Assembly: GCA_000092065.1 (NCBI GenBank)
Contig: CP000587.1
Length of the DNA stretch: 64,000 nucleotides
DNA from: Ostreococcus lucimarinus
Lineage: Eukaryota
Reading direction: 5' to 3' (one strand)
Part shown: positions 2,898-21,765 of the stretch, in pieces
Position numbering within the stretch: the first letter of the stretch is position 1
Layout: every line of letters starts with the position of its first letter
Notes under the pieces: generated by a model
The model's input: the letters and a program-made list of their open reading frames with translations, nothing else
Database searches by the model: none
Told to the model about the DNA's origin: nothing
Position numbers and translations under genes: made by a program

Positions 2898-3060
2898 CCG
2901 TCGCGCACTGGCGCGCGCGCGTCGGTCCGTCGACCGCGTCGCACCGCATTTCAAAAACGACGAGTCGCGAACCGAGGGGGGGGGACTCCAGGGCTGTCGC
3001 GCGCCGCGTCGACGCGGCGACGACGCGACTTCGCGACGCCGAGCGCGCGCGACGAGGACG

Positions 3061-4509: not shown

Positions 4510-4614
4510 CGAATCAAAGGGGAGGTTCAAGTTTTGTACACGACACACTAACACACACATCATAGAAGAGATCTCTTAATCATTAAGCGAAGCTATTCAC
4601 ATTACAAGTCGCCC

Positions 4615-6594
4615 TCATCGCGAAAGGCTGTCGAGAACGCCGACCTCGGCCAGCGACAGGGGAGGATGAAAACTTCGTCTGTTCACGCGCACGTCTTCCA
4701 CGAAATCGTCCACAGTTTTGGACATCCGTTTGCGCGAATTCGCCGAGTCGAGCAATCGAATCATGACAACGGCAAAATCGCGGCTGTACGGCGGACCTGC
4801 GATCTCCAACACCTCGTTCGCAAAGTATCGAATCTGAGACGGATCCAACGTCCGACGCCACGAGTTCGCCGCAGCCGTGATCGTCGGCATCACGTGGCCA
4901 GCAGCGACGAGTTCGCAACCCAGGTCGAGGAGCGAAATAGCCAATTCGGCGCCGTGTGAACTTCCGCATGATTGAATGATCGCGTTCAGCGCCTCCAGCA
5001 CCACGCCTTGCAGCCCAATGTGCTTCTTCGCCACTTCCCCGAGGACGTGCACGAAAACAGAGTTGGCGTTCCCGACTTGAACGACCCGATGATACATTTC
5101 ATTCGTGAGCGCAGAGCGCGCGGCGGCGATGATACCTGCAGTCGCGCACGGGATAGCGAACACTTTATCGACACTCGTCTGCTCTGGCATCTCGCCCCGC
5201 TTCGCGTTTTCGACGATTGCCACGGCTTCAGTCAACGCCGCTTTTACTTCATCCACGCTCGTCTCGTCATCGCTTGCGGCTAAAGCGATCAGCTCGAAAC
5301 ACTCGCTGCGTAAACGATTCGCGCCCGAGTCAACTGTCCATTTAAAAGCTTCCGAAATGAGGTTGTAAAGGACGTCGGGGTGCCGAAGCGGCGCCACCGA
5401 CGGCTTCTTCTTGACGTCGCTCGACACGTACAAGTCGAGCAGCTTTTTCAAGTCCCCAGCCGCGAGTGCCCCACTGTCGCGTATTTGCCCAACCGATGAC
5501 GTGTTCGTGCCCACTGGACGCGAGCTGAGCAAATCAGCCGTGGCGTACTTGGCCGTAGCGTCAGCCGCGGACGCCGCGAGCCAAGGCGCCAGACGGCGAA
5601 CCGTTGCGGCACCGTGCAAGCTCGCTGCCGCCTCTTCAATCTCTTCCGACAATCGCGCCGCGATCGCCTGTGAACTCTTGGTCGTCGCCTTGTCCGTGTC
5701 TCGCCCTAAAGTCGCGAGCATGAGCTGGCCAAAGACGTACGTGCCTATGGACTGACAGCACATGCTCTTCAACCGCTCTTCAAAGTCCATTCGTCGCTCG
5801 TCGTCATCACCGGCTTCGATGATTCCCTTGACGTGATCGGCGAGAAGTTCGTGAAAGATGCTAAAATACGCCGCCGCCGCAGGTCCGAGCGCGCGCACTT
5901 CGTGTCGCATGCCGCGCTGCCACGCGTGCTGAATCGCGCACGAAATCAATAAACAGTTTGGATTACGCTCCGCCAAAGAAAACAACACCGCCCGCCCGCG
6001 CTCGCTCTTGAACAGCCCATCCAACCACGCCGGCGGTCGTCCCTGGAACACCGCGTCCGCCTTATTCGCGTCGAATTTCTCTCTCACGAGCGCCTCCAAA
6101 AAATACATTTCATCGAATCGCGCCTCCGTCTCCATCGTCGCCGCGCGCTCCCGCGGCGTCCCTTTCCCCGCTCCGCTGGTCAATATCCCTCCAGTCGGTG
6201 TTCTCGTCGCGTCACCGTCGCCATTATCGATGCCTCGCGTCTCTACCGCCGCGCTCACCTTGATCGGCGACGTGTTCGCGCCCCGTCTCGGCGGCGCCGT
6301 CACCTTCAACCAGTGCACCGCCAGCGTCGTCATCGCCGCGTACCCTCGGTAATTCTCGCTCAGCAGCTCTATCGCCGTGCTCGGCGCGCCTCCCGCGGAG
6401 ACGTACGCGCGCACGTCATCGATCGCGCTCGGTTCCATTATGAAATCTTTCTCCGCGAGTCGCGCTTCCAATTCCATCAGCCTCGACGTCTTCGTCTCGC
6501 CCAGCGCCGCGATCGCGCCGCTCTCTCCCGCGCGCGTCCCCTCGCCGTCGCTCGCCGTCGCGGTTCGCGTGCACACCTCGTCGTCGTCGGACAT
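4615..6594 (-). CDS. Conserved hypothetical protein of 659 aa.
   Basis: This is a long ORF with ordinary, non-low-complexity composition over most of its length. It starts with a verified ATG (CAT at 6592-6594) and has GC-rich codon usage like its neighbours. I recognise no confident family. Confidence 0.4.
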   Translation of the reverse strand: MSDDDEVCTRTATASDGEGTRAGESGAIAALGETKTSRLMELEARLAEKDFIMEPSAIDDVRAYVSAGGAPSTAIELLSENYRGYAAMTTLAVHWLKVTAPPRRGANTSPIKVSAAVETRGIDNGDGDATRTPTGGILTSGAGKGTPRERAATMETEARFDEMYFLEALVREKFDANKADAVFQGRPPAWLDGLFKSERGRAVLFSLAERNPNCLLISCAIQHAWQRGMRHEVRALGPAAAAYFSIFHELLADHVKGIIEAGDDDERRMDFEERLKSMCCQSIGTYVFGQLMLATLGRDTDKATTKSSQAIAARLSEEIEEAAASLHGAATVRRLAPWLAASAADATAKYATADLLSSRPVGTNTSSVGQIRDSGALAAGDLKKLLDLYVSSDVKKKPSVAPLRHPDVLYNLISEAFKWTVDSGANRLRSECFELIALAASDDETSVDEVKAALTEAVAIVENAKRGEMPEQTSVDKVFAIPCATAGIIAAARSALTNEMYHRVVQVGNANSVFVHVLGEVAKKHIGLQGVVLEALNAIIQSCGSSHGAELAISLLDLGCELVAAGHVMPTITAAANSWRRTLDPSQIRYFANEVLEIAGPPYSRDFAVVMIRLLDSANSRKRMSKTVDDFVEDVRVNRRSFHPPLSLAEVGVLDSLSR

Positions 6595-6906
6595 CGTCGG
6601 CGAAGGCGCGCGAGCGCGAAGTGCCGCGCTGCATCAATGGGCGCGCGACGACGACGCGCGCACCGCGAGCTCGTCGGTTTAGACGCCGCGGCGCCGGCGG
6701 ACGAGGAATTCGCGCCGACGAGCGCGCGGGCGCGGACGAGCGCGCACGCGCGGGCGCGCGGGCGCGCGAGGGAGAAGGATTCGCAGCGCGAATTCGCGAT
6801 TCTGGTCGGCGGCTTCGCGTGCGTGTTGGCGCTCGTCGTGTTCGTGTTTTACGAGCGCGCGATCCACGGCGGATAGCGGCGTCGACGCGCGCGAACGCGT
6901 CGGACG

Positions 6907-7212
6907 ATGCCGGACGGTGAGGGCGAGCGGCGGGCGAGCGCGAACGAACGCGCGGCGCTGCGGCGGTTGGGGTGGTTTACGGCGGCGCTCGCGGCGGTGC
7001 CGTACGCGACGTATAAAACGACGCTGCGGACGACGTGTCCGGCGGCGTACGAGAGATACGGAGCGACATTTTTAGCGACTGAGAGTGGACGAGCGACGTG
7101 TGCGGGGATGTTTGCGATCGTGGCGGTGAATGTAGTTTTGCTCTTGTACGTCGCTTCGGCCCTGCGCGGCGGCGACGAACGGCTGCCGGTTCCGGCGAAG
7201 AAGGCTGACTAA
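6907..7212 (+). CDS. Possible small protein of 101 aa with a C-terminal hydrophobic segment. The call is weak.
   Basis: ATG verified at 6907. The protein ends ...MFAIVAVNVVLLLYVASALRGGDERLPVPAKKAD. It lies in the divergent gap between two minus-strand genes. An in-frame upstream ORF (6637..6876, also ending in a TM helix) is separated from it by a single stop codon. High GC gives many spurious ORFs, so confidence is low. Confidence 0.2.
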   Translation: MPDGEGERRASANERAALRRLGWFTAALAAVPYATYKTTLRTTCPAAYERYGATFLATESGRATCAGMFAIVAVNVVLLLYVASALRGGDERLPVPAKKAD

Positions 7213-7302
7213 AGTTCTAATGTCAATTTACAGTTTGAAGACGCTATGTGAGTACGCTATGTGAGACCTCGACCACCGCGCTACGGTTATCGAAGTCTTC
7301 CG

Positions 7303-10300
7303 CTAATCTAAAATCGAAGACACGGTATCCTGCACTCCAATTCTCTTTGCGAGGATGTCACTGAACGCCTCGTTCCAGATGAGGACAGTCTGCATCGTCG
7401 CCACGGGAAGCAGCGACATGAAGAACAATATAGTAAAGATTATTAAACCGAAGAACTTGTCCATCTCTTTGTACCAGAAGTCTGAAAACCCTCGCGCTGC
7501 GGCCAAGCCGCGTCGCGCGCGGTACACAAATGGTTGCAACGCGCGACGCACACCGTTTCCTCGAGGTTCCGGTTCGCCATCCACTGTTTTCATCGGGAGC
7601 CAGCTTTCACCGAAAGTAATGATACTCTTGTCACTCACGAAGGAGCACGCCTCGATGAATATCGCCACGACGCACCAAGCGCCGAGCCCAGTCATGAACC
7701 ACGTGCGGAACAAGCTGTTGCTGCCGGTTTCGACGTGCAAAGCGAAAAAGTACAACCCATTCCAGACGAGGAAGAGTCCCAGACGTACCAGTCCGCGATA
7801 CACGCTAATTTTCCACAGTTTGTCGGGGAATTGTAACCACGCGTCGCGTGCGAATACCACTGAGTTCATCGCAGATGTGTACAAGAACACGACGAAGCCC
7901 ATTGCAATCGTCGCAGCGGCGATGCGACCCGAGTTCACGCTGAACTGTTCCATTTGCGTCAGCCCTGTGTATAGCGCGCTGCCGTGCAGAGAACCAATCA
8001 CAACAAGCAAGAGGATGACACGTCCGAAACTACTCATGAATAAGACGCCCGCTTTGTTGAATAAACCAATTCTGTTTCGATAGTTGGTGTTCATCGTCGA
8101 GTGCCACTCTTTCCAGGAACCATTCGCGATTTTGGGCTTGTCGAAAGTACCATCGAGCCAGTCTCGCCAATCGTTCCAGCTATTTCGCATCCAGTAAGTG
8201 TTCGTGCTTTGTGGCGAAAACCACCAGGGCGTTATGATGATGCAGATACCAAAGCTCCAAACCGACCAAGAGTACAGCAGTGATTTTGGAAGCACCGTGT
8301 TCGCGTGAAACAACAGTAAAAGAAGCAACACTTCCATACCAAAGTACAGGTGAGACTTGGCGTACAAGCCGTAAAGTACCACCATGTTCGCATTTTGTAG
8401 CACAAAACCCCGCTCGGTAGCGATATACTGCGCTTTACCGAAAAGGAGACCAACCATGTAATTGTAACCTTTCGTCGTCATGGCAAAAATGTTGAACGCC
8501 CACGAACCACGAACAAGTGACGAGGCGGTGTATTCGATACCATCGCGCAATCCTCTATCCATCACCATCTTCAAGAAGAGAGGTAGGACTGTTAGTAATC
8601 CTAGCTGGATCGCATAAATGGAGTTGTAATAACCACCTTCTTCTTTAGACAGCGACAGTGTTGTTTGTGTCTCTGTCATTTTGAAATAACGATAGACACG
8701 ATAGATTTCAAGATCTGCAATCGCGAGCCCGGCGTGCACTAGAATGTACAAATAAACACACCAAGCCGTCTGCATAACGCTAATGAAGAAGCCTGGGCCA
8801 CTAAAGTACATAGACATCATTCTGAAAAAGTCCATCGAGCGGTGTAGTCTGTAAACGTCACGAGACATTGAGATTGTCCCCGCAGAGCCTGAAATCTTTT
8901 GTTCGAAACCATTTACGGATGTAAAACCCATATCTCTTCCTTTACCCACCTCGATGAACTCTTCAAATAACACTCGGCCGCCACGAACGATCGCGTTCAC
9001 GCCACCGAAGAAATCCTCGGCGACGTGGATCATCTTTGAGGCCTTAGACACGCCACCATTTGTCATGGTGAATGCCTTGTCCCACACGTCGGGGTGACCG
9101 TAGTGGAAGCGCACCATGAGTGGCCACGTCATGAAACGTTGAAACGTTTGGAAAATGAACTCTGAAATCGCCGCGAACTGTGCGACGGCGCCCGTAGTCT
9201 CACTAAATATCACCTCAGGAAAGCCGACGAGGACAACGTCCTCAGAGAAAACATCGAGCAAGTTTCGCATCTTCAACGCCTCCGGGAAGTAGCCATCTTG
9301 ATTCATGTCCAGCGTTTGCAGGTAAGCACCTCTGCTGAAAATGACGGCGTGGTTTTGGTTTTCAGGTTTTCCTTCTCCAATTATTGGATTTCCTGGTAAT
9401 TCTACCTTGCACGCGAGAGATAACGTTCTATTTTCTCGATCGCATCCGACGAGACACGAAGCGAACGTGTCGTTTGTGTCAGACTTTGTCTGCACGAAGC
9501 ACACTCGAAGCTCTGGATGATTCAAGATGAGCTCGTTTATATCCTCCGCTTTCTGTCTATCAGCGGAACCTTGTGGAGCATTCAGCATATTTCCGTACAC
9601 TTGGCAAGACACGAGATATTCGAACTTGTCGCAGACCAATGTCTCAATCTCATCTTCGTCGTACCCTTCCGCTCGCGCAAGAAAGCGCAACGCTGCCCCA
9701 TAACTGCAGACACCACGCACGCAGCGACTGAGCGACTGCGTATGGTCGCTCGTCCAGATGCGGAGTTCTTCCCAGTACTTCTCAGTCACTGTGGCGTCGT
9801 CGCACGCCAAGGCCCCAACGCGCTCTTTGAAGTTTTCGTACTCATCTGGATACGTTGCTTGGATGATGGACAGCAGCGTCTTTTGATCTTCAAGAGGCTT
9901 TATCAATTCATCCTTCACGTAAGAAACCTCTTCAGCGTAATAAGGCGTGAACGCAGTCCACGCACGCATGTTACGCAACTTGGTGGGCATTTTCAGCGTC
10001 GCAAAGCTCAGAGAATTGGCAAAAAACATAAGTTGCCGACGAGCTTCGAGATTACGCGGCTCACCACCAGGATTGATGTTGTTCATTGAATTCAACAAAC
10101 AATCGACAATCTTCCGGTTGTTTACCAGCGTCGCGGAGGCGGACACTACTCGCACATGCTCAGTGTCACGCAGCGCATCGATGCGCACCATTTCAAGAAG
10201 TTGCGAATAAAGCTGCGACACACGATACTTTCTCTGATTGTTTGCGTTCGACCAACGACCATCGTTTTCCATGGCAAACGAACAGATCTTCCGAACCGCG

Positions 10301-13300
10301 AGAAGTATTTCGTGTAACGCTTCAGCGAGCGTGCTCGATTGCGCGTCGATATCTGCATCAGTTTGGATATTCGACCACTTGATGAGCTTTCGGCGACCTC
10401 TTCGCCAACGTTTACGAATGTTCGGTCGCTCTTCGCTTTCGTCCAGGAGAGCTCGTTGCTCTGCGCTCATTTCGTCCCAGTTTTCTTGAACGACGAAGCA
10501 TCCGCGCAACAGACCGCTCTTTTCCTTCATCTTTTTGCGTTTCTCTTTGGGAATAATACCGGTACAGCCAAATTTCATCTCGAGATTGATTGCCTCGACC
10601 ATTTGTTTCTGGCGATTTTTTTCCTTCTCGCGGATAGCCCTGAGTTGTCGCCGTTTTGTTCGTTGCTCCTTCCTCAATCGAGCTCTTTCGGCGCCGGCTG
10701 TATCGCCGAGAAGAAGGAGTTGCGCCTCTTCATCATCACTTTCAGTCTCTGAACCTTCAACATCTTGATCTTCATAATCTTCGATTATGGGAGTCGCATC
10801 AGTCGACGCACTCATCGCTTGCAACGTTAAGAGAAGCTTGATGATGGAGTCACGGAGTTGAATATAGCCACCGACGTCGTCGCGGCGACGTTGAGACATT
10901 TGCTCCCCCTCTATCGCGGCTAAGTCGGTTATGACCCGCATCAAAAGCGAAGAATCGCCGGGGGAGACGACTCGAAGCACTTCAGTCATCACCACACAAA
11001 GCAAATCCTTGGTTTGGATCAGCGTCGTGCCGAAAGAAGGGTACTGCGCCATTGTCCCAGTATTGAAGTTTGCCCTCGAGAAGACTGAAGAGGTGAGCAT
11101 CGGGGGCAGTATGATGTACTCCGGGGCGTCAAATATTTGCTCAATATCACGACCCTGGAGGAAAACAAACTTCAAGTCGGTACACTCCTTGTTTGTGATG
11201 TGGTCACGTGCGCGCAACGAATCGACAATCGAATTCCACCCACGCGAAAAGTGTTGCCATTTGACATCCATCGCCTCCGGTAAGAAGTCAGCTGGATTTG
11301 GAGCGGCGGTCTTTACACCAGACTCCATAAGGACCTCATCTTCTACAACGGTTAGCGCAACAGAATCAAGTAAACCTTCGTGAAGATCGCCGCCACCGTA
11401 GCCACCGCCCGAACGTATTCTTTGTTCTTTGGCACCAAATGCATCATCGTCGCTATCGCCGGAAGCGTTACCACTCGTGGTGGCATCGCCTGTCAAAATG
11501 ACTGGCTTTGGCCACGACTTATTCAAGACTTTTTCGCAGAATAGATTTGGAATCTGTTGAAAGTCTCTCAAAAAGTTCGCCCATCGTTGAGCGTGCGACA
11601 CTTTTCCTCTCCACTGAAGGAAAATTGTGAAGACTGATGCGTAGCACGTGTACCACAAAAACGTATCGCAAAAGTACGTCGCCACGGCTGGAAGCATCCG
11701 CGCGATTACCATGACAGTCATCAAAAATTGAGACGCGTGCACGTCGTAGTATGCTTCCGGTAATTGACCTTCAATTTCTTCACCAATATAACCGAGGGCT
11801 GGAAGGCTGAGCTTTTTGCCGCCGATTGCACTGCTCACGACATTCGACGCAGCGTCCACGATGTCAGATACCGTAGACTCCAACCTAGAATGTGGCATCG
11901 ATGAAGGACTAGCAGCAGCGCTACTCCATCCCCGATATTGACCGTTGTATGGATCAACGGAATAGTTCACGTCATAAGCGATCGAAAACTGACTTTCGTC
12001 TCCCCAAGATGCGCCAGTGAAATCGCCACCACCGGCGTGCGAAAATAGCAAACTTCTCCGGCGCTCGGGAATGGGCTCGTAGTAAGCGAGATTGATATCG
12101 CTTTCTTCGTAGTCGTCGTCGTCTTTTGTAAGCTCGGTAAAGTACGTGACTTTTGGCTTAAACTTCAACGCTTGGACGAGCGCATCGCCTTCGAGGTTGA
12201 TGCACGAAGTGTACTCATCGCTCTCTTTGTTCCAGCACAGATCCCCTTTCTTCAGCGCATTCACCGCCTCGCGCAGAGGAGTGATGAGGAGGAAGTGACC
12301 AAACGCAATCTTTGTGGAGAGCACGACGAGCCAGAAAAGAGTGTAAATAATGCGCTCGCGGACAGGCGTCGCCATTTGCGTCGGCGAGCCAACAAATGGC
12401 TGGCGCCGAACCATAGAGGACATCAGGCCACTGTTTGCGAGTGCGTACACCGCCGCCAAACCTTCAAAGTACTTCGTACTGTTATCGGCGCGAAGCGAAC
12501 GCTCCAGCACGTAAAACATTGGCACCGATATAAACATTCCAGCTCTTGTCGAGGTGACCATCCAGTCGCCAAAAGACTCTTGCGAAATGTTACGGAACCG
12601 GATTACCGCGACTTCCTGTCCAAACTTTAGCAACGCATGCGTCACCATCGACGTCGAGAGGTACGACCAATTCCAACCGTGCGCGAACACGTAAGCGGTC
12701 GATAAATGGAATGCGACGGCGTGGAACAAGATGATGGAATGAAAGTTGACGAACATGCTCAACCAACCTGAGGTTTCACGATGCGTTTTGAAAAAAACAT
12801 TGGTGAGAACGGCTGAGGAATCGCCTGAAGCCATCGCGCGCGACATGAATGAACGCAGGTGCTCGTACATTCTGGCATCTCTAGAAAGATTTTTCATGTT
12901 TCGAGGTACGCCAACGTAATCAGTTTCTTCTTCGCCGCGGTCGGGTTCTTCTTCCGGCGGGAGAAGTCGCACCAATCTGTCGTATTGCCAGAAAAATTCG
13001 TTGACATCGTCGTACATGACGCGCTCCGAAATGGGCGCAGAGGCACGATCAGAAATTTCTCGCTTTAAGAAGGTGTAAATCGGAGTGATCACGGTGCGAA
13101 GGAAATCCTTTTCACCGTAAGGCATGACGTCTGCGGATACGGGTTTGCACATGATGCGCTCTTCGCCTTCACCGGGAAGCCTATCGTCAAGCGTAAGTGA
13201 GCAAAGTGCCGCGTGAAAGATGAAACAGAGACATTCACTCATGTGGCGGAGATTGGCACATTCCCCGTATATCAAAAACCAAAGGCACAGGTGGTGAAGC

Positions 13301-13664
13301 TTTGCGTTCAATTCGACCGCGACGGATTGTTCGCGACTTGCACGCGTCCAGAGTTTGTTTGCGTCAGACATGTACACCGAAAGTAGCATTTCTCTAGAAT
13401 CCTGATCATCGTCACGAGCGATGCGTTTTGCGTGCGAAGCGACGGAGTCCACCATGCCAGTGTACGCGCCCCAGTTGTTGTAGTTCTGGAATAAATGCGC
13501 GTGAAGTTCGTGTACAACATCGTTCCAGTATCGATCCAAGTAATCGGTTGAGTAACTCGATACATCTTCTTTTTGTGTGAGCAATTGCTCAAGCCAGACG
13601 GATAAACTGTCAACGCTGTTTGCGAGGTTTGACGGGACGTCGACTTCCTCATTCGTGAATGTAG
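7303..13664 (-). other. FKS/GT48 glucan synthase module 2. Coordinates are approximate.
   Basis: VRFHYGHPDV is encoded at about 9086-9115 (plus coordinates). The two catalytic cores are about 6.5 kb (about 2177 aa) apart, so each module is a complete FKS unit. Confidence 0.55.
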
Positions 13665-16600
13665 AGTCCTTCGCGCTCTTCTGGAAACCGAACATATCCG
13701 CGAGGTGTGAAGCAATAGGCTCGATCCTACGTTTGATTTCGGTGACTCTCTCGTTTTTGTTGGCCGTCATGTCACCCACTGATGTCAAATCTTCCTTCAT
13801 ATCCGGGATGGTGCTCGGCATCGGTCTAGCATAGCGAACAGGCGTCGATTTCAGGCCGAGGACCTTCCGGATGAAAACTCTGGACGACAGAAACCAAGTT
13901 TTTACCGAACGCGACGTCATCGCCCGATTGATTGTCGTCACCAAAGTGCGGCGGCGCATTTCGACGCCTAGCACAGATGCATATGCTCTGTTGAACAACA
14001 TCTTTGCGTGAACGTAAGAAATTGGCACGAGGGACAGCAGAGCGAGGCAAATATGCAGAGCCAATCCGATCACCTCATCCACATCTCGGAAGAAAAAGTC
14101 ACTGAAGATGCGCATCGTTCGAGCTATGTGCTTGAACATAGGCAGTGGAATATCGGAGATCAGTGAGGATATATGAACGACACAGTGCACCGTGCAGAAT
14201 GCCGCCAAGGCGAAAACGATTTTGTTCTGGCGCTGTTCAGTATCGAGCGTTTCGCTGAATAAACGTCCGCAGAGCTTCATGTGGAACACAACCAAAAAGA
14301 CTCGGACGCACATATTGTACATCAAGATGACGCTGCGTTTACCGACCTCGCTGGATGTGAGACCCAGTCTTTCCCCGATTGCGATTACGCGCTGCGGCCA
14401 GAAGAACGACGGCGACGTACTCATGAAATAGACTCCGGTGAGCAACAATCCGGCGATACCTGCAGTGACAACGACGACGCCTCGTACAGCCGGAATCCCG
14501 TCGAAATCGCTCACACGGACTGCCGCCGTACTACACACCATAAGGATGAGTGGGACAGGGAGAATGCGGAACGTGATGTACTCCATCTTGAGATGTCTCG
14601 GCATGGCGCGTAGTGACTTCATACGCTTGGCCTGCCACATCCACCAAGTGCCATCTTGATTGACTGCTCCTTGATTGCCAAGTTTAAAGGGATCAAGCCA
14701 GAATAGCCAAGAAGTGAAGTTTATCGCGGGGATACCCTCCTTGAAACTCTGTGGATGAAAGAACCAAGGTGAAAACATCCAAAGAATGACGGCGATCCAT
14801 ACATGCCAAGTTGTCGTCACAAAGACGTACCCTGCGCTGAACGTAGATAGTTCTGTGAGCAGAAGAGTCATCGCTAAAGTCGACATCGATGGAATGATGT
14901 GTGAAACCGCGTACTGCATGTAAAGGTCGGAAAAAGAGGCGTTCATACTCATACTGCGTTTGGTACCGCGGTACGACGCTTCGCCAGAGGCGATCGAAGC
15001 ATCGATAGCAGAGCCTCTCGATTTGGCGATGAACATGTGGTACACAAACGATCCCGTAACGATCCCGTGATAGGTATCTTTGACCATCTTTACTAAACCA
15101 CCGGTGATCCAACCGTGCAACATACCAGGCCAGGCCATCACCAAGCTCGCTTGAAGCATCCATTGCGATGGATACAGTGTTTCAAGGCCAATTTCTTGGT
15201 GGAAACCGACGTTATCGAAGGCATCGCCAGTTGTGTAATACGTTTCAATGCTAAACATTGCGATCACTGTCTTACACAAGACAAAGGCGGCCATGGATGT
15301 AAACAGCATGAATTCTGTGTAGAATAACCCAACCGACGACTGGAAAAAGCTCAAGCAGCGGAAAATGTCCATGCTCTTTGAAAGTCTATGAAAGTCACGC
15401 GAGATAAGCTGCATACCGTTCCCAGTAGCGATTTTTTTATTGAATTGGTTGTTACCATCGAATGAAACTTCTCGTCCCTTGCCACAGGTGGTAAAGTTCA
15501 CGTACTCGATTTTGCCACCCCGTTGCACGACATTCATACCTCCGTACACGTCCTCTGACAAGTGCAGTCTTCGAGAAGCCTTAGAGACTCCACCACTTGA
15601 GCGGATGAATGCACCATCCCATATGTCAGGGTGGCCGTAGTGCATGCGGACACGAAGAGGGTTCGTCATGAAACGCTGCAACAAAGTCCCAAAGACCGCC
15701 TCAGAAGTGGCCGCAAAACTCGACACTGACCCCTGACGCCCAGAAATCAGTTGTTCGGTAAAGCCGATGAGCACTATGTCTTCGTCGGATCCATACAACC
15801 TCAGAACGTTACGAAGTTTTAACCCTTCTGCGAGATGTGCATCTTGGTTCATATCAATCGTTTGCACATACATGCCACGCGACCAGACCAATCCCATGTT
15901 TTGGTTTTCGGGCTTGCCTTCGCCAACAATTGGATGCCCAGGAAGTTGAACACGATGCGTTCGCTTGAACTTTCCGTCTGCGCCGCGACTGAGCTTTGCA
16001 ATTGCGAAGTTATCATTGTCGCCACTCGGTTGTTCGACATAATTTACCGTGACATGCGGGAATTGTTCCACGAGCGCCTCCACTTCACCGTTCATCGTAT
16101 ATCCCGGTGAGTTGTAGACTTGGCAACACAGGACGTGCTCGAACTTTGCACGAACCAATGGTTCAATCTCATCTTCAGGGACGCCTTCCAGACGTGCCAA
16201 TAATCGTAGGGCATCGATGTAAGAGGCAAAGCCTCTCACCGTACGATATAAAGTTTGACCTTCGCCGCTCGCCCAGTTCATGGTTTCTTCACTCAGACGT
16301 TTTTCCTCATCGGTGAATGTGGACAAAGCAGTGATCTTGTCCAACATCGCGCGATCAAAAAAGTGCTCGTAGTTTGAGTCTTTCACCTTCACACCAGTGC
16401 GCTCGATCATGTTTTCCCACGAAGACGGTGCCATGCTGACCATGAAGCGAAATCCCGTGACGGATTCGCCATCGATTGTTGATGTCAACGTGTCCAACGA
16501 AGTGCGAATTTCTTCGGTGTAAACCGGAGTTAGCGTCGTCAGCATCGGCATCTGACGAACAGTCATTGGTTTCTTCATTGCAGGATCGCCGAGGCTTGAC

Positions 16601-19600
16601 ACGAAAAATCGAAAGATGTCTTTCGCTTCGTCCAAAGAAGGTTCGGCCGCGGGGTTCGCCGTAGAGAGCATCAGATCCATTTGTTTGATGACGTACGATC
16701 CAGCCTTGGAGGACGCCGCACTTCGAATTTTGGCTGATGACGAATCGAGAGCATTAAAATCCATGATTTGCTGAAGCTTCTCGCACGTTTTAACCAAGAG
16801 TACGTTCGTTTCTTTGTGCGTTGCGCGCTCATTCTCGCGGTCCTTTGCGATCTCAGTGCTGATGAGTTTGAGCAAATTTTCCATCTGCGAGCGAATTCGA
16901 CTGGTATCAAACGCACTTTCGTCATCTTCACGAACTCGCAACAGCTTCAATAGTCCCGCCGATTGCTCGCGCAGCGACCCGAGCCATTTTATCGCATGGG
17001 AATGCTCACTCAAGCTCAGCGACATGAGGTCAACGAGAGACTTGAGCAATTCTACAAACTGCACACGGTCTCTGGCGTCGACAACTCCGAGGACACAGGT
17101 AGCGATGAAAGCGAGCAAGTCAATCGATTGCGCAATCACGGATGACGAAAACGCAAACCGCATCTTTTCATTGCGCTGAACGCCAATTCCACTAAACAAA
17201 GAGCCACTGAGCATGATAGGGAAAACGACGTACCGAGAGCCGAAGAAGCTCTCGCTCGTGGGTCCATCCAGGATACGGAACAAAAGAAGATCGGTCTCTT
17301 CGTTACTCAAGAGGTCTCTTGAGCGCGTCGACTTCACGATCTCGTTCCATGCTTTCGCGAAAGAGAACCAGGCATCCGAAACGCTTTCTGAACACAATGC
17401 TGTTGAAGAGTCCGAAGGTGGTTCCGGCTTGGGAGAAGACGTCAAAACTTTTTCCGCAAATAAATCCACGTTTTGCGGCATATCAAGAACTGTGCGTGCC
17501 CACCCGCTGGCAATACCTGTGTTCTTGTAGCGCTTGTATGCGCTAGCGACGCCAAGCGTCGTGATGAAGTAGAAGAACGTGTTACCAAAGTACAGCAATA
17601 CACTCGGCATCCATCGCTCGAATAACATGAGCGCCTTGAATCCATATCGTCTCGCCAAACGAGTCATTTCGATTAGCTGTGGAGAGAGGAGCTCGTTATA
17701 GTCGTACGCATCACAGTCAGCCCCTGCGAAGTTATAATTCCAGCAGTACAGATCGAGTTCCAGAATCGCTTTCGTTGGTGCGATGAGGGGGTTGACCATC
17801 AAAATATAATCGAGGGTCAACTTCAACGTAAAGGTGACGACCCAGAAGATGATATACGACCGTCGGTCTTTGCTTGATATGGGATTGTTCACCTTCTCTG
17901 TGAAATATCTGTCCGTTTTGTCACCGGAAGTGAGTTGGTAGCCAGAGATATTGGCCAAAACCAGCACAGCGTAGGGGAAACCGACTGCAGCAAACGTCTT
18001 CACATTGATGAAGTCAGTGGCACAAGCCATCCCGAGTAGCAGAACTACTATAGCGAAAGCGGCGCGTCCGACTGATTCTACTCGACTATGGAACAACGCA
18101 ATTCGGTCGAAGAAAATGACTCTCGACTCGATGATCAGGTCAAATACGGCTGCCGTCAGCGCCGTCGTCGAGTACATTGCCGGTTCTGCAAATTTCACAA
18201 ATGCGTGCACAATCATAACGTGCATCATCAACGACAGGAGCGCGAAAATGCGATGGAAGTTGACATACATCGTCATCCAACCCAAATGCTCTCTGTAAGT
18301 TTTTCTGAAAACAACGCTCAAACTCTGATCTTTCTCCTTAGCGGCTCCCGCAGTGCGCACAAAATGCCTGAATTTAGCATACGAGCTTGTGCCCATCTCA
18401 GCGTCTATGTTCAGCATACGCTTCAACTTTGAGACATCAATAAATGTTTCATTCATATCATCGTAACCCATGCGAAGATGCAAAGGAGCAGCACTTTTCA
18501 TGTGCAATGCGAGGAAATTGTATAGCGGTCTCACAATTGAGGTGAGAAAATCATCCGCTTCAAAAGCCAAACCGGAGTCGGGTACAGCCGAACACATGGT
18601 GCCTCGGTTCACGACAGCCGCCGCCATGATGTGAAATACAAACATCATAAACTCTGGCATAAACCTCAAATTGGCAGACTCTTGGTAAATGAGCTCGAAC
18701 AGTACAAGCTGGCATAGCTTCGCATCAGTGCTTCCCTTCAACATCGAAGACGCCAGCGTCTCAGTTCCACGCGGAGAAAAATCTATGCCAGTGTAACTCA
18801 TGTATCGCTTATAACTCGCAAACGTTTTCTGATGAAGAGCCTGCGCGGCCCAGTCTGATTTGTTCGAGCTCGGCGCGTCTTGGAGTTGAGACGTGTTCCA
18901 AAGAAGCATCGCGCACTTATCGATGCAGCTTTCTCGTATGCTTGCGACGCCTTCGCTACCGTTTTGGAATCCAAATAAATCACCGAGACTTTGCGCGATG
19001 GGCGCAAGCCTAGTTTTCCACTGCTCAATATCACGCTCGATGGAGCTTGCTCCCGATGGCTCCGGGCCAAGACGAGTGAGAGAATCTTCTTCGAATTCGA
19101 CAGGTGGAGATTCTTTGCTGAGTTCACCGACGAGTTGCCGAGACGCTTTGGAAGGCGTACCCAACGCGCGTACAGCTCGTTTCTGGATATCCGCCGTCGC
19201 GCGATCGTCCGCAATAAACAGTCGAACGATCAAGAAATTCGATCGAGAAAGAGAGACTAATGCATCTCGCACGTATCGACGCGTTATACGCCAACGAATG
19301 GCGAGAGCAACGCCCAAGTACAAGATGATCGCTAGGTATACCACCGTCAAGAGTTCAACCTCAAGTTTTAAGGCATCGACGGATTCGCGGTCGGGGCAAC
19401 TCGTGTCCCCAGGTTGCTCAAATCGCTCTTTTTGATCTTCTATGTACGTCTCCAACTCTGTAAATATTGTCGGCGGCTCCGGACACGCTCTGTTATTTTT
19501 GCGATGAATCTGTCGCATGTGGTGACAGGTCAAAAAAGTGCTTTGCAATGCTGTCGAAACCGGGTTGATCAACCCCTTTGGATGCGTCAAGATTGCACTA

Positions 19601-21765
19601 AAGTTCTCGAAGTGCGCATAAATCGGTGTCGGCTCGTTCGGATTGAGCTTGATTCCGTGGAATGCCTCCGCCTCGGCGCGCATGAACAAGTGCATCGTCC
19701 TGTTGTGATAACTTTTCATAAATTTCGAGCAGTCTGGATACATGTCGATATTGTAGGCTGGCTGATTATCTTGTCCGTGGAATATAGTACAGCTCCCCCC
19801 GTCCTTCCAAAGCAGCTTCAGCATGTAATAAGCAGCTCTTGGTCGCAGTAGGTCCACTTTGTTTATGCTACACTTCTTCTTCACCGCCATCACTCCGAAC
19901 CACTCCTCGGACACATACAAGTCAGGCTGCGTCGGGGACATGTATCCACACGGAGAATGTAAATATTCTTTCAGCGATGGGCATACTCGCGTGATCGTTG
20001 GAATGCGCTCGTCGTTGGTTGGCACAGGAGTCACTGCTTTGCCTTTCCAGTATTCGTCGACCCAAGCCATGATGGCCCCCCCGGACGTAAATCTAACTCC
20101 GCAACCCGATTTGCACGCCGTGGAGTGTCGCTCTATATCTTCTACCATCGTAGAGAGCCAATCTGCCTGTGAAACCTCATCCTCGGTCCCCATCGTGTCG
20201 TACCCGTTGAGACCATCCAGTTCTGGATTGAGGCTAAAGGCATCAACCCCATACTCCGTAATCAAAAACGGACGTTTGCTCACCAGATGGTATCGCTGAA
20301 ACAGTCCCATTGGAGAAAAGTAACGCCGCGTGTACAAGTTAACGCCCCAAAAGTCGATTTGATCCATGTACCGATCGGCTAACTTTATCCAACTCAAAGC
20401 TCCCCACAGCTGGCGTCCCACCAGATGCTGCTTAGTCTTTGGCAAATTTACGTTCGCTATGGCTGTGCCGCAGAGCATGTTTTCTGATCGGACCATCCCG
20501 CAGAGCATGTTGATCGACTTCATCAGCTTTTCGATCGAATCGTCAAACTGACATCCGCCTACCCCAAAGTTTTCGGCCAAATCGCTATCACACACGTACA
20601 AATTCCACGGGCCGTTCAACTCGTTGCCGACAATCCAACCGACCACGGCCGGATGCTTCGCCGATCGTACAAGTTTGCGTAGTTCAGCTTGCGTATTCTC
20701 CATCGTCTCTGCGGTGTTAAAGAAGCTTTTCGTACCGTCTTCAAAGTCATAGCCGACGAGAATTGATATGTTGTACTGGTGCGCCAAATCAAAGAATTGC
20801 CTATGCCGCTTGGAAAACTTCAACGTGTAGATGCGCATCGTGTTCACGCCCGCAGCGGCCATGAGAGGTATGTCGCGCTCAAATATACCCGCGTAGTCAT
20901 TCGTAAAAAAGTCACCATACGGCTCAAACCAATCTGGGTCCCATCCGACCGGCACGGGGGAGTAACACACCGCGCGCATCAACCATGGTTTGCCGTCGAG
21001 GTACAGGGTACGCCCGAGCCGACGCATTCGACCGGTGTCCCATGTCGTGTTCAACATCGGCGGGTTTAAAAATCTCTTCACCAGCTCTCGTCCCGACCGC
21101 TTGCCGTGCTCGTACTCATCGTCGACAAACGCGGGATCGTAAATCGCCTCGTCCGTCAACGCCAAGCCCGGCTGTACCGTCCCCGCTCTGTTCATTTCGC
21201 TTTGCTTCGAATAAGACGACGAGCGCGATTCACCTTCCGCTACGTCTCTGTTCGCGCGCCCACCGCGTGTGGTCTGCCCTAATGCCGGAAGCGGCCGCGC
21301 CTCGCGCGTCCCCGCCGCCGTCTTCTCCGCCGCCGTCCTCGGTCTCGCCTCGTTAAAGTCCCACACCGATCCCGACAGCCGTTCATTCAGGGCGTCTAAG
21401 TCGACCGTCCCGCTCGTCTCGCTCGCGCTTCGCGCCCCATCGATCGTCCTCGCGCGCTCAAACGTCCGCGCTCCTTCGTCCGCCGCGTCAACACCCTCTC
21501 GGAGGCGGAGCGACTCGCCGCCCGTCGTTCCACCTTCCGTCGCCCCCATCATCGCGTCCGACGCCACCGACCGCGCGCCCGCGTCCCCCCGTCGCGCGAC
21601 GACGGCCAAGACCACTCCCACGACGCCCACGAGCGCCGCGAACGCGCGTCGATGATCGACCCACGCGCCCCGTCCTCGTCCTCGTCGCGATTCTCCCGCC
21701 TCTCTCCCTCGCGTCGCGCCATCGCGCCGCGCGCCGAGCATCGGCGTTCTCTCCGCCGCGCTCAT
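7303..21765 (-). CDS. Giant beta-1,3-glucan synthase megaprotein of 4820 aa. It combines an N-terminal signal anchor, a GH72-like beta-1,3-glucanosyltransferase domain and two tandem complete FKS/callose-synthase (GT48) modules.
   Basis: This is a single uninterrupted ORF with a verified ATG start (CAT at 21763-21765). The N-terminus carries the TM helix AFAALVGVVGVVLAVVA. The GH domain reads IPLMAAAGVNTMRIYTL...AVVGWIVGNELNGPW...IDFWGVNLYTRRY...PFLITEYGVDAF, matching Gas1/Gel (GH72) FPLMKELGINTIRVY...FAGNEV...FFSEYGCN. Module 1 contains ESANLRFMPEFMMFVFH...RVRMHYGHPDIWDG...VQRGGKIEYVNFTTCGKGREVSFDGNNQFNKKIATGNGMQLISRDFHRLS. Module 2 contains ECANLRHMSECLCFIFH...MVRFHYGHPDVWDK...GKGRDMGFTSVNGFEQKISGSAGTISMSRDVYRLHRSMDFFRMMS. 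Both match FKS1/callose synthase signatures. Confidence 0.8.
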   Translation of the reverse strand: MSAAERTPMLGARRDGATRGREAGESRRGRGRGAWVDHRRAFAALVGVVGVVLAVVARRGDAGARSVASDAMMGATEGGTTGGESLRLREGVDAADEGARTFERARTIDGARSASETSGTVDLDALNERLSGSVWDFNEARPRTAAEKTAAGTREARPLPALGQTTRGGRANRDVAEGESRSSSYSKQSEMNRAGTVQPGLALTDEAIYDPAFVDDEYEHGKRSGRELVKRFLNPPMLNTTWDTGRMRRLGRTLYLDGKPWLMRAVCYSPVPVGWDPDWFEPYGDFFTNDYAGIFERDIPLMAAAGVNTMRIYTLKFSKRHRQFFDLAHQYNISILVGYDFEDGTKSFFNTAETMENTQAELRKLVRSAKHPAVVGWIVGNELNGPWNLYVCDSDLAENFGVGGCQFDDSIEKLMKSINMLCGMVRSENMLCGTAIANVNLPKTKQHLVGRQLWGALSWIKLADRYMDQIDFWGVNLYTRRYFSPMGLFQRYHLVSKRPFLITEYGVDAFSLNPELDGLNGYDTMGTEDEVSQADWLSTMVEDIERHSTACKSGCGVRFTSGGAIMAWVDEYWKGKAVTPVPTNDERIPTITRVCPSLKEYLHSPCGYMSPTQPDLYVSEEWFGVMAVKKKCSINKVDLLRPRAAYYMLKLLWKDGGSCTIFHGQDNQPAYNIDMYPDCSKFMKSYHNRTMHLFMRAEAEAFHGIKLNPNEPTPIYAHFENFSAILTHPKGLINPVSTALQSTFLTCHHMRQIHRKNNRACPEPPTIFTELETYIEDQKERFEQPGDTSCPDRESVDALKLEVELLTVVYLAIILYLGVALAIRWRITRRYVRDALVSLSRSNFLIVRLFIADDRATADIQKRAVRALGTPSKASRQLVGELSKESPPVEFEEDSLTRLGPEPSGASSIERDIEQWKTRLAPIAQSLGDLFGFQNGSEGVASIRESCIDKCAMLLWNTSQLQDAPSSNKSDWAAQALHQKTFASYKRYMSYTGIDFSPRGTETLASSMLKGSTDAKLCQLVLFELIYQESANLRFMPEFMMFVFHIMAAAVVNRGTMCSAVPDSGLAFEADDFLTSIVRPLYNFLALHMKSAAPLHLRMGYDDMNETFIDVSKLKRMLNIDAEMGTSSYAKFRHFVRTAGAAKEKDQSLSVVFRKTYREHLGWMTMYVNFHRIFALLSLMMHVMIVHAFVKFAEPAMYSTTALTAAVFDLIIESRVIFFDRIALFHSRVESVGRAAFAIVVLLLGMACATDFINVKTFAAVGFPYAVLVLANISGYQLTSGDKTDRYFTEKVNNPISSKDRRSYIIFWVVTFTLKLTLDYILMVNPLIAPTKAILELDLYCWNYNFAGADCDAYDYNELLSPQLIEMTRLARRYGFKALMLFERWMPSVLLYFGNTFFYFITTLGVASAYKRYKNTGIASGWARTVLDMPQNVDLFAEKVLTSSPKPEPPSDSSTALCSESVSDAWFSFAKAWNEIVKSTRSRDLLSNEETDLLLFRILDGPTSESFFGSRYVVFPIMLSGSLFSGIGVQRNEKMRFAFSSSVIAQSIDLLAFIATCVLGVVDARDRVQFVELLKSLVDLMSLSLSEHSHAIKWLGSLREQSAGLLKLLRVREDDESAFDTSRIRSQMENLLKLISTEIAKDRENERATHKETNVLLVKTCEKLQQIMDFNALDSSSAKIRSAASSKAGSYVIKQMDLMLSTANPAAEPSLDEAKDIFRFFVSSLGDPAMKKPMTVRQMPMLTTLTPVYTEEIRTSLDTLTSTIDGESVTGFRFMVSMAPSSWENMIERTGVKVKDSNYEHFFDRAMLDKITALSTFTDEEKRLSEETMNWASGEGQTLYRTVRGFASYIDALRLLARLEGVPEDEIEPLVRAKFEHVLCCQVYNSPGYTMNGEVEALVEQFPHVTVNYVEQPSGDNDNFAIAKLSRGADGKFKRTHRVQLPGHPIVGEGKPENQNMGLVWSRGMYVQTIDMNQDAHLAEGLKLRNVLRLYGSDEDIVLIGFTEQLISGRQGSVSSFAATSEAVFGTLLQRFMTNPLRVRMHYGHPDIWDGAFIRSSGGVSKASRRLHLSEDVYGGMNVVQRGGKIEYVNFTTCGKGREVSFDGNNQFNKKIATGNGMQLISRDFHRLSKSMDIFRCLSFFQSSVGLFYTEFMLFTSMAAFVLCKTVIAMFSIETYYTTGDAFDNVGFHQEIGLETLYPSQWMLQASLVMAWPGMLHGWITGGLVKMVKDTYHGIVTGSFVYHMFIAKSRGSAIDASIASGEASYRGTKRSMSMNASFSDLYMQYAVSHIIPSMSTLAMTLLLTELSTFSAGYVFVTTTWHVWIAVILWMFSPWFFHPQSFKEGIPAINFTSWLFWLDPFKLGNQGAVNQDGTWWMWQAKRMKSLRAMPRHLKMEYITFRILPVPLILMVCSTAAVRVSDFDGIPAVRGVVVVTAGIAGLLLTGVYFMSTSPSFFWPQRVIAIGERLGLTSSEVGKRSVILMYNMCVRVFLVVFHMKLCGRLFSETLDTEQRQNKIVFALAAFCTVHCVVHISSLISDIPLPMFKHIARTMRIFSDFFFRDVDEVIGLALHICLALLSLVPISYVHAKMLFNRAYASVLGVEMRRRTLVTTINRAMTSRSVKTWFLSSRVFIRKVLGLKSTPVRYARPMPSTIPDMKEDLTSVGDMTANKNERVTEIKRRIEPIASHLADMFGFQKSAKDSTFTNEEVDVPSNLANSVDSLSVWLEQLLTQKEDVSSYSTDYLDRYWNDVVHELHAHLFQNYNNWGAYTGMVDSVASHAKRIARDDDQDSREMLLSVYMSDANKLWTRASREQSVAVELNAKLHHLCLWFLIYGECANLRHMSECLCFIFHAALCSLTLDDRLPGEGEERIMCKPVSADVMPYGEKDFLRTVITPIYTFLKREISDRASAPISERVMYDDVNEFFWQYDRLVRLLPPEEEPDRGEEETDYVGVPRNMKNLSRDARMYEHLRSFMSRAMASGDSSAVLTNVFFKTHRETSGWLSMFVNFHSIILFHAVAFHLSTAYVFAHGWNWSYLSTSMVTHALLKFGQEVAVIRFRNISQESFGDWMVTSTRAGMFISVPMFYVLERSLRADNSTKYFEGLAAVYALANSGLMSSMVRRQPFVGSPTQMATPVRERIIYTLFWLVVLSTKIAFGHFLLITPLREAVNALKKGDLCWNKESDEYTSCINLEGDALVQALKFKPKVTYFTELTKDDDDYEESDINLAYYEPIPERRRSLLFSHAGGGDFTGASWGDESQFSIAYDVNYSVDPYNGQYRGWSSAAASPSSMPHSRLESTVSDIVDAASNVVSSAIGGKKLSLPALGYIGEEIEGQLPEAYYDVHASQFLMTVMVIARMLPAVATYFCDTFLWYTCYASVFTIFLQWRGKVSHAQRWANFLRDFQQIPNLFCEKVLNKSWPKPVILTGDATTSGNASGDSDDDAFGAKEQRIRSGGGYGGGDLHEGLLDSVALTVVEDEVLMESGVKTAAPNPADFLPEAMDVKWQHFSRGWNSIVDSLRARDHITNKECTDLKFVFLQGRDIEQIFDAPEYIILPPMLTSSVFSRANFNTGTMAQYPSFGTTLIQTKDLLCVVMTEVLRVVSPGDSSLLMRVITDLAAIEGEQMSQRRRDDVGGYIQLRDSIIKLLLTLQAMSASTDATPIIEDYEDQDVEGSETESDDEEAQLLLLGDTAGAERARLRKEQRTKRRQLRAIREKEKNRQKQMVEAINLEMKFGCTGIIPKEKRKKMKEKSGLLRGCFVVQENWDEMSAEQRALLDESEERPNIRKRWRRGRRKLIKWSNIQTDADIDAQSSTLAEALHEILLAVRKICSFAMENDGRWSNANNQRKYRVSQLYSQLLEMVRIDALRDTEHVRVVSASATLVNNRKIVDCLLNSMNNINPGGEPRNLEARRQLMFFANSLSFATLKMPTKLRNMRAWTAFTPYYAEEVSYVKDELIKPLEDQKTLLSIIQATYPDEYENFKERVGALACDDATVTEKYWEELRIWTSDHTQSLSRCVRGVCSYGAALRFLARAEGYDEDEIETLVCDKFEYLVSCQVYGNMLNAPQGSADRQKAEDINELILNHPELRVCFVQTKSDTNDTFASCLVGCDRENRTLSLACKVELPGNPIIGEGKPENQNHAVIFSRGAYLQTLDMNQDGYFPEALKMRNLLDVFSEDVVLVGFPEVIFSETTGAVAQFAAISEFIFQTFQRFMTWPLMVRFHYGHPDVWDKAFTMTNGGVSKASKMIHVAEDFFGGVNAIVRGGRVLFEEFIEVGKGRDMGFTSVNGFEQKISGSAGTISMSRDVYRLHRSMDFFRMMSMYFSGPGFFISVMQTAWCVYLYILVHAGLAIADLEIYRVYRYFKMTETQTTLSLSKEEGGYYNSIYAIQLGLLTVLPLFLKMVMDRGLRDGIEYTASSLVRGSWAFNIFAMTTKGYNYMVGLLFGKAQYIATERGFVLQNANMVVLYGLYAKSHLYFGMEVLLLLLLFHANTVLPKSLLYSWSVWSFGICIIITPWWFSPQSTNTYWMRNSWNDWRDWLDGTFDKPKIANGSWKEWHSTMNTNYRNRIGLFNKAGVLFMSSFGRVILLLVVIGSLHGSALYTGLTQMEQFSVNSGRIAAATIAMGFVVFLYTSAMNSVVFARDAWLQFPDKLWKISVYRGLVRLGLFLVWNGLYFFALHVETGSNSLFRTWFMTGLGAWCVVAIFIEACSFVSDKSIITFGESWLPMKTVDGEPEPRGNGVRRALQPFVYRARRGLAAARGFSDFWYKEMDKFFGLIIFTILFFMSLLPVATMQTVLIWNEAFSDILAKRIGVQDTVSSILD
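13665..19965 (-). other. FKS/GT48 glucan synthase module 1. Coordinates are approximate.
   Basis: RVRMHYGHPDIWDGAF is encoded at about 15601-15660 (plus coordinates). Multi-TM regions flank the catalytic core. Confidence 0.55.
20085..21093 (-). other. GH72-like glucanosyltransferase domain of the megaprotein. Coordinates are approximate.
   Basis: GNELNGPW is encoded near 20606-20640 on the plus strand, and the ITEYG nucleophile motif lies downstream of it. Coordinates are derived from amino-acid positions of about 225-560. Confidence 0.55.

Follow-up and report, generated by a model that had tools for sequence, protein, structure and literature searches.

The question raised by this locus is whether synthesis and remodeling of beta-1,3-glucan have been joined in one polypeptide in a green picoalga. 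GT48 synthases and extracellular remodelers of glucan are, as a rule, distinct proteins, and their coordination is an open question in cell-wall research, taken up only in 2026, for the non-covalent Bgs3-Ghs2 pair of S. pombe (PMC13612389). In a 64,000-nucleotide stretch of Ostreococcus lucimarinus DNA (the window; GenBank assembly GCA_000092065.1, contig CP000587.1), positions 7303..21765 of the minus strand hold a single uninterrupted open reading frame (ORF) that starts with ATG and encodes 4820 amino acids (aa) of about 544 kDa. A first reading, made from the sequence alone (the sequence-only reading), had described this giant ORF as a GH72 glucanosyltransferase fused to two FKS/GT48 synthase units. 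We found that the frame is genuine and that a predicted glycoside hydrolase (GH) domain of clan GH-A is followed in it by two complete GT48 units; from sequence comparisons we consider it fairly probable that the product is a covalent synthase-remodeler machine in one polypeptide, conserved in Mamiellales and mirrored in haptophytes. Its features, all on the minus strand and including predicted transmembrane (TM) segments, are as follows.

7303..21765, minus: entire reading frame of 4820 aa and a stop codon, about 544 kDa; one ORF of 4812 or 4805 aa in six independent assemblies
21592..21765, minus: Arg/Gly-rich tail at the N-terminus (aa 1-40), then a hydrophobic signal anchor (aa 41-58); hydropathy peak 2.05, with RRGRGRG...HRR before the anchor
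21076..21591, minus: spacer, aa 59-230; no Pfam family; tblastn alignments of relatives begin within it, at aa 119-163
19396..21075, minus: clan GH-A domain, aa 231-790, predicted to be exoplasmic; a (beta/alpha)8 barrel (about aa 247-575) with a C-terminal extension that contains Cys
20620..20625, minus: N381-E382, where strand 4 ends; predicted acid/base pair, equivalent to the invariant N151/E152 of alignment A1 (described below), model strand 144-151
20254..20256, minus: E504 (in ITEYG), where strand 7 ends; predicted nucleophile, equivalent to the nearly invariant E274 of A1, model strand 270-275
19288..19350, minus: TM helix, aa ~806-826, followed by RWRITRRYVR; hydropathy peak 2.66, conserved in the related locus L001; predicted return of the chain to the cytosol
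13990..19287, minus: GT48 unit a, aa 827-2592; N-domain (predicted to be cytosolic), TM cluster, GT domain and TM cluster, from Pfam, hydropathy and tree
18415..18720, minus: FKS1_dom1 of unit a, aa 1016-1117; 58.5 bits, cut-off 27
14668..16632, minus: Glucan_synthase of unit a, aa 1712-2366; 443 bits; TPVYTEE 1746, GEGKPENQN 1948, DMNQD 1971, HYGHPD 2042, SEDV 2070, GKGRE 2095
13726..13989, minus: linker between the units, aa 2593-2680; stop-free
7306..13725, minus: GT48 unit b, aa 2681-4820; from Pfam, alignment to yeast Fks1 (E 5e-69) and tree
12967..13302, minus: FKS1_dom1 of unit b, aa 2822-2933; 84.3 bits
8089..10059, minus: Glucan_synthase of unit b, aa 3903-4559; TPYYAEE 3940, GEGKPENQN 4130, DMNQD 4153, HYGHPD 4221, AEDF 4249, GKGRD 4274

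The claim that 4820 codons run without interruption was borne out. The window is free of N, and the probability of 4820 stop-free codons at the ORF's own base composition is about 1e-101. Look-up of the neighboring TH1 gene led to six independent metagenome contigs from short-read assemblies (five from ENA and one from JGI), in all of which the giant gene lay beside the same TH1 neighbor and had been called as one ORF of 4812 aa or, once, 4805 aa, with the Pfam order FKS1_dom1, Glucan_synthase, FKS1_dom1, Glucan_synthase in 6/6. These contigs matched the window ORF gap-free at 99.7% identity over aa ~1718-4820, and the population variants amounted to 10 differences in 3103 codons, sequences too alike for an estimate of the ratio of nonsynonymous to synonymous substitution (dN/dS). 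Because six contigs carry the same single ORF, gap-free and nearly identical, a sequencing frameshift or mis-join as the source of the frame is excluded. In the contig with the shorter call (L017; JGI 3300007263) the giant gene ends 15 codons early and its alignment stops at aa 4805. All the motifs quoted in the sequence-only reading, which had named no strand, were found, IPLMAAAGVNTMRIY at aa 299, GNELNGPW at aa 380, ITEYG at aa 502, NLR[FH]M at aa 1032 and 2838, and HYGHPD at aa 2042 and 4221; the two HYGHPD copies, which had been placed about 2177 aa apart, measured 2179 aa apart.

The junctions between modules were examined in relatives of the giant ORF. The passage from the GH domain through the TM helix into unit a occurs within one ORF in P0003 (588 aa, 80% identity, covering aa 396-983) and in P0393 (1129 aa, 53% identity, a cluster of 60 sequences, covering aa 263-1312), for which the precomputed Pfam matches are GH2_C and FKS1_dom1. 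Locus L001, with 46-63% identity to the giant ORF and the same upstream cathepsin gene, contains an ORF of 3037 aa (10816..19929) that takes in the second half of the GH domain and continues in a single frame across the TM helix and the whole of unit a into unit b. Locus L003, from TARA, has an ORF (4548..9548) that reaches from a second GH domain into the FKS unit, and in L005 the junction between units a and b is crossed in one frame (alignment aa 2474-3559). Conservation does not fall off at these places: the segment at the GH/unit a junction (aa 700-960) showed 45% identity in the window comparison with L001, the same as the rest of the protein, and that at the unit a/unit b junction (aa 2540-2760, 221 aa including the linker) showed 44% identity to the L001 ORF with only two 2-residue gaps. 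Linkers as conserved as domains are not expected of untranslated spacers. No stop codon was found in either linker in Ostreococcus, L001, L005, P0003 or P0393. Frame breaks do occur in L001 and L005, but they fall within domains and not at junctions, and both contigs come from pilon-polished long-read assemblies.

That the frame holds two full tandem FKS units was likewise confirmed by Pfam, which found Glucan_synthase twice and FKS1_dom1 twice. In the whole protein, Glucan_synthase (PF02364, cut-off 37.2 bits) scored 898.6 bits in two stretches and FKS1_dom1 (PF14288, cut-off 27 bits) scored 139.8 bits in two stretches; when the halves were scanned separately, the scores were 443.3 and 58.5 bits for unit a and 463.6 and 84.3 bits for unit b, all above cut-off. 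The synthase is internally duplicated, as had been claimed, and alignment of one unit to the other gave 28% identity over 1082 aa. Because the units are so different, the duplication is judged from sequence to be old and neither recent nor artefactual. The catalytic and substrate-binding residues of yeast Fks1 have been defined structurally by Zhao et al. (PMC10499315), and we placed them through the alignment of Fks1 to unit b and then of unit b to unit a. Both units retain E851, K1082, D1102, N1104, E1155, E1173, H1195, E1221, D1222, K1246, R1248 and K1261 (Fks1 numbering); the substitutions relative to Fks1, present in both, are D1080 to E, K1172 to S, and N1220 to S or A. As these catalytic residues are kept in both, both units look catalytically competent. 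Hydropathy plots gave two TM clusters around the GT domain in each unit, a method that yields neither helix number nor orientation.

A neighbor-joining tree of the GT48 core (380 columns, 200 bootstraps, rooted on yeast Fks1) placed in one clade unit a with its L001 and L005 orthologs, unit b with further fragments from Mamiellales, and enzymes of the haptophytes Prymnesium parvum and Chrysochromulina. This clade was split at 100% bootstrap from land plants, stramenopiles and Symbiodinium; the branching order inside it was not settled by the tree. PF25968, carried by all plant hits, is absent from the giant ORF. On the strength of the tree split and the missing PF25968, we conclude that the giant ORF is neither an ortholog of land-plant callose synthase nor specifically fungal; the fungal framing of the sequence-only reading does not suit a host that is the green picoalga Ostreococcus and GT48 units that cluster with haptophyte enzymes. 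We do not claim that the duplication is shared with haptophytes. N-terminal similarities had hinted that units a and b are orthologous to units 1 and 2 of P. parvum, respectively, but the tree pairs the two P. parvum units of each locus together (97% and 56%), which points to independent duplication or to homogenization.

Identification of the N-terminal domain was less direct. The Pfam GH72 model (Glyco_hydro_72, PF03198, cut-off 25.9 bits) gave 16.3 bits against the full-length protein and 21.3 bits against the isolated domain (aa 231-720), and GH2_C (cut-off 21 bits) gave 18.7 bits against the isolated domain, all below cut-off; a phmmer search with the domain against PDB sequences gave no significant match. 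A first search for homologs found 41, of which 23 were aligned as A1; 20/23 matched GH2_C and 19/23 matched GH72 at E <= 0.01. Some homologs of the domain, such as P0237 with 52 bits, passed the GH72 cut-off. The best match of the A1 profile was GH158 (9ORO, E 2.2e-16), with both catalytic halves aligned, followed by the GH72 enzyme Gas2 (2.5e-13, first half only) and then GH2 (2.4e-11). An AlphaFold model of the domain (predicted local distance difference test, pLDDT, 70.8; predicted template modeling score, pTM, 0.75) was a clean (beta/alpha)8 barrel with N381-E382 after strand 4 and E504 in strand 7. In Foldseek the model matched Gel4 (GH72), a GH5 mannanase, BuGH158 and Gas2, all within 1e-11 to 6e-11, and the top fold matches were all members of clan GH-A. 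The N-E pair and the nucleophile E are invariant or nearly so in A1, and a (beta/alpha)8 barrel with N-E after strand 4 and E after strand 7 is the signature of that clan. Neither profile nor fold singled out GH72 as the closest family, however; GH158, GH157, GH72 and GH2 were equally near. The sequence-only reading was therefore right about a GH-type (beta/alpha)8 domain, but its GH72 label was not established, with 21.3 against 25.9 bits, and the three motifs offered as GH72 hallmarks (IPLMAAAGVNTMRIY, GNELNGPW and ITEYG) are generic to clan GH-A.

The family to which this domain belongs is large. An exhaustive profile search gave 6115 cluster representatives at E <= 1e-3, among them bacterial multidomain proteins with RHS, Peptidase_C39, Big, PKD or type IX secretion system (T9SS) modules and a Cymbomonas protein named GH family 2 by UniRef. 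Of the bacterial-looking members, P0300 and P0308 are fused to Peptidase_C39 and long RHS/YD-repeat regions; in P0311, also of this family, CBM30, Big and PKD occur together with a T9SS signal. We conclude from profile and model that the N-terminal domain is, by prediction, a clan GH-A domain of the retaining type in a large family lying between GH72, GH157, GH158 and GH2. Three of these four neighbor families (GH158, GH157 and GH72) act on beta-1,3-glucan, which fits a synthase as the fusion partner. Pfam detected no CBM43/X8 module in the domain, which runs into the TM helix and the GT48 unit and has no glycosylphosphatidylinositol (GPI) signal.

The topology of the product was predicted from the segments that bracket the GH domain. 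The proposal of an N-terminal type-II signal anchor is supported by the hydrophobic stretch at aa 41-58, which is preceded by the Arg-rich tail; the alignment of one homolog, P0002, to the giant ORF begins as early as aa 9. A second TM helix at aa ~806-826 is followed by the basic sequence RWRITRRYVR, and between the two helices lie 15 Cys and 4 N-glycosylation sequons. From the two bracketing helices, the Cys residues and sequons and the basic residues after the second helix, we infer that the GH domain lies outside the cytosol and the N-domain of unit a inside it, as Fks1 requires. If unit b also faces the cytosol, unit a must end there. In yeast Fks1, cytosolic Rho1 contacts the TM15-HH1 loop and K1788 (PMC10499315), so the C-terminal region of that enzyme is at the cytosolic face; by analogy, this gives indirect support for a cytosolic end of unit a.

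We therefore propose, as these features suggest, a single polytopic membrane protein that would couple beta-1,3-glucan synthesis to extracytosolic glucan processing. The type-II anchor (aa 41-58) and the second TM helix (~806-826) would hold a clan GH-A retaining domain, resembling a glycosidase or transglycosylase, on the lumenal or extracellular face. Behind the second helix would follow the two complete GT48 units, each comprising an FKS1_dom1 region in the cytosol, a first TM cluster, a GT domain, again cytosolic, with the complete catalytic set of the Fks1 type, and lastly the TM cluster that would form the translocation channel. Each unit would polymerize UDP-glucose and export the resulting beta-1,3-glucan chain through the membrane, and the tethered GH domain, acting by hydrolysis or by transglycosylation, might cut, transfer, branch or release the emerging chains, so that synthase and remodeler would form a covalent pair. 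Because Ostreococcus is wall-less and stores starch, we favor a role in making a beta-glucan that is secreted or associated with division, or one that is soluble and laminarin-like. In O. tauri, a 'callose synthase' is among the genes peaking with mitosis and has been linked to Golgi-derived secretion at division (Monnier et al. 2010, PMC2850359).

The sequence-only reading gave the impression of a one-off, yet fusions or linkages of GH and FKS recur in several lineages, in which the architectures GH-FKS, GH-GH-FKS and GH-FKS-FKS were all seen. FKS genes are immediately preceded by a GH gene in the same orientation at L002 (41% identity) and at two TARA loci, L003 and L004 (31% identity); two tandem GH domains precede the FKS unit at L003 2002-5084 and L002 7842-11623. 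A frame change in L003 (aa 483/495) lies near the L001 frame break (aa 485), which could mark an intron position or be coincidence. Locus L008 of Prymnesium parvum (GCA_041296205.1) shows a GH match at 6274-6705, followed by a first FKS unit at 9125-14856 and a second at 15371-20932, all on one strand; the pieces are collinear with the Ostreococcus ORF and are annotated as three genes. The match to the C-terminal TM region of its unit 1 (13790-14856 of L008, CM083859.1:3786031-3809820) lies outside any annotated gene model, and the haptophyte gene models are probably fragmented. A tandem FKS pair occurs again at the P. parvum loci L006 and L007 (CM083876.1, about 1.86 and 1.90 Mb); these pairs are about 39 kb apart and have identical gene lengths, which looks like a recent segmental duplication, and L006 contains a 1000-N gap. 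A single-unit form is P0248 (2355 aa), with a signal peptide, a GH domain, a TM helix and one GT48 unit. Two near-identical 7.35-kb contigs from two sequencing runs consist of this complete ORF and short ends resembling untranslated regions, and they look like one mRNA from a third lineage.

Several other explanations were weighed against the single covalent machine. An artefact of assembly or annotation, or a decaying pseudogene, in which two adjacent genes or a collapsed duplication were read as one frame, might be suspected from the frame breaks in the related nanopore-based contigs and because the exact 4820-aa product was not found by look-up in the protein collection. (The word-indexed protein search lists matches of up to about 1300 aa, even for plant callose synthases, and its lack of giant matches was not used as evidence.) The recurrence of the ORF in six independent short-read assemblies and the chance value of about 1e-101 argue otherwise, units with 28% identity cannot be collapsed copies, and the breaks in L001 and L005 lie inside domains of polished long-read contigs; this explanation is effectively refuted and retains hardly any probability. 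A more serious alternative is that one gene gives several proteins, by cleavage of a precursor or by internal starts of transcription or translation, so that separate GH, FKSa and FKSb proteins would meet in an ordinary non-covalent complex. In-frame Met codons are present in the linker (RPMPSTIPDMKED), single-unit GH-FKS forms such as P0248 exist, and P. parvum has three separate gene models in the same order, with stops in every frame between its units. These models are plainly incomplete, however, with the C-terminal TM region of unit 1 outside any of them, no linker stops occur in the five sequences listed above, and the linker-spanning segments are as conserved as the domains, unlike untranslated spacer. 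We regard separate products as unlikely.

Two further alternatives concern the functions of the parts. In the one, only one GT48 unit would be a working synthase, and the other, most likely the fast-evolving unit a, would be a regulatory or scaffolding pseudo-enzyme or would make a different linkage. Unit a and its orthologs lie on a long branch, database matches are all nearer to unit b than to unit a, and the FKS1_dom1 of unit a scores lower (58 vs 84 bits); nevertheless all of the catalytic residues checked are kept in both units and the Glucan_synthase scores are nearly equal (443 and 464 bits), and we think a division of this kind quite improbable. In the other, the GH domain would be a true GH72 beta-1,3-glucanosyltransferase that elongates or branches glucan like the fungal Gas, Gel and Phr enzymes, an assignment that is doubtful with GH158, GH157 and GH2 as near as GH72.

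The covalent synthase-remodeler machine thus remains our preferred explanation, but certain observations weigh against it or against parts of it. The comparisons of sequence and fold establish neither the GH72 label nor a transglycosylase reaction. A search for transcriptome peptides with a chimera of both junctions as query yielded two metagenome proteins only and none from MMETSP. The long branch formed in the tree by unit a and unit 1 of L001 and L005 could mean that unit a has diverged in function. Hydropathy cannot count TM helices for parity, and yeast Fks1 itself has been described with 15 or 17 of them. To our knowledge, no beta-1,3-glucan is known from the wall-less, starch-storing Ostreococcus. 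Finally, in the survey by Ulvskov et al., prasinophytes were reported to be without GT48 (PMC3797821).

The ORFs around the giant ORF are eukaryotic and free of introns; they encode TH1/NELF-D, two cathepsins, FtsZ, an eEF3-like ABC protein, a DEAD helicase and a lipoxygenase. The TH1 product is identical to XP_001418887.1 of Ostreococcus lucimarinus CCE9901, which assigns the window to this member of the Mamiellophyceae or to a strain hardly different from it. The giant ORF has a G+C content (GC) of 0.509 and of 0.59 at third codon positions (GC3), compared with 0.59-0.68 and 0.68-0.82 for neighboring genes, and only its first 200 codons are host-like, with a GC of 0.70. Foreign origin, gene length and expression level are possible reasons for the low GC. 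Horizontal transfer is kept as one possibility, because a second long gene, the lipoxygenase ORF, has the same composition and the L001 ortholog is only moderately lower in GC than its flank (0.607 vs 0.675). The lipoxygenase ORF (58138-63984, minus strand, 1948 aa) has a GC of 0.518 and a lipoxygenase domain of 229 bits; a PLAT match of 22.5 bits (cut-off 23) and a catalase-like stretch of 20.6 bits are both sub-threshold, and about 950 aa in front have no assigned domain. It resembles the catalase-related allene-oxide-synthase/lipoxygenase fusions of corals. The NCBI model for it (XP_001418901.1) has 1031 aa only, as compared with 1948 aa here. The ORFs at 54837-56609 and 56807-57859 are likewise low in GC (0.53-0.55). 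Between the giant gene and TH1 (6595-7302; L012 9383-9958), the metagenome contigs carry a VMA21 homolog (101 aa) and a 79-aa ORF. The 851-aa ORF at 1954-4509 (plus strand) has FtsZ domains in its C-terminal half only (Tubulin aa 476-636), and its long N-terminal extension is probably not real, because the metagenome calls have only 393-447 aa.

Our literature search turned up neither a GH-GT48 fusion nor tandem GT48 units, and no paper describing the GH-FKS-FKS architecture, in agreement with the earlier opinion that it is undescribed. The closest functional precedent is the Bgs3-Ghs2 pair of S. pombe, in which a beta-1,3-glucan synthase is paired with a membrane-anchored extracellular GH domain lying near the extrusion pore and coordinated synthesis and remodeling have been proposed (PMC13612389, 2026). 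There, too, a synthase works with an extracellular GH, but Bgs3 and Ghs2 are two separate proteins with a GH16 beta-jelly-roll and one synthase, whereas the giant ORF would join a clan GH-A barrel covalently to two synthases. With other GT48 enzymes (yeast Fks1/Gsc2, PDB 7XE4 and 7YUY; plant callose synthases; diatom and haptophyte GT48) it shares FKS1_dom1 and Glucan_synthase, the two TM clusters and, in both units, the Fks1 catalytic residues; it differs in having two units per chain, a GH domain in front, a clade shared with haptophytes and no PF25968. Unlike GH72 enzymes (Gas1/Gas2, Gel4, Phr), the GH domain has a sub-cut-off match in which the second catalytic half does not align by sequence, lacks a GPI signal and CBM43, and has TM helices on both sides. 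The bacterial endo-beta-1,3-glucanases of GH158 and GH157 (BuGH158, 6PAL/9ORO; Labilibaculum GH157, 9FZ9) are 16-21% identical to it in sequence. They are, however, soluble or lipoprotein hydrolases for laminarin breakdown and not parts of synthases. In cellulose synthesis, a processive membrane synthase is accompanied by a glucanase across the membrane, as in bacterial BcsA/BcsZ and plant CesA/KORRIGAN. These systems are alike in logic but consist of separate proteins, of GT2 and GH8 or GH9, and concern a beta-1,4 linkage.

As a natural covalent fusion, the product would fix the stoichiometry and geometry of a synthase-remodeler pair, and would do so in an organism with a tiny genome. The presence of the gene contradicts the published statement that prasinophyte genomes have no GT48 (PMC3797821) and raises the question of which beta-glucan a naked, starch-storing picoalga makes. 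The tandem GT48 units offer a test case for cooperation of two channels in one chain, for example in making paired strands or two different products, and the haptophyte link bears on the origin of marine laminarin-type glucans. It is a tentative suggestion, and one that we would not call likely, that GH-GT48(-GT48) 'megasynthases' form a distinct, unrecognized class of beta-glucan machine, common to Mamiellophyceae and haptophytes through ancient inheritance or gene transfer, that makes a soluble or secreted laminarin-like glucan. Were this so, wall-less, starch-storing Ostreococcus would also make beta-1,3-glucan, and its tethered GH domain would set chain length or branching directly at the extrusion pore.

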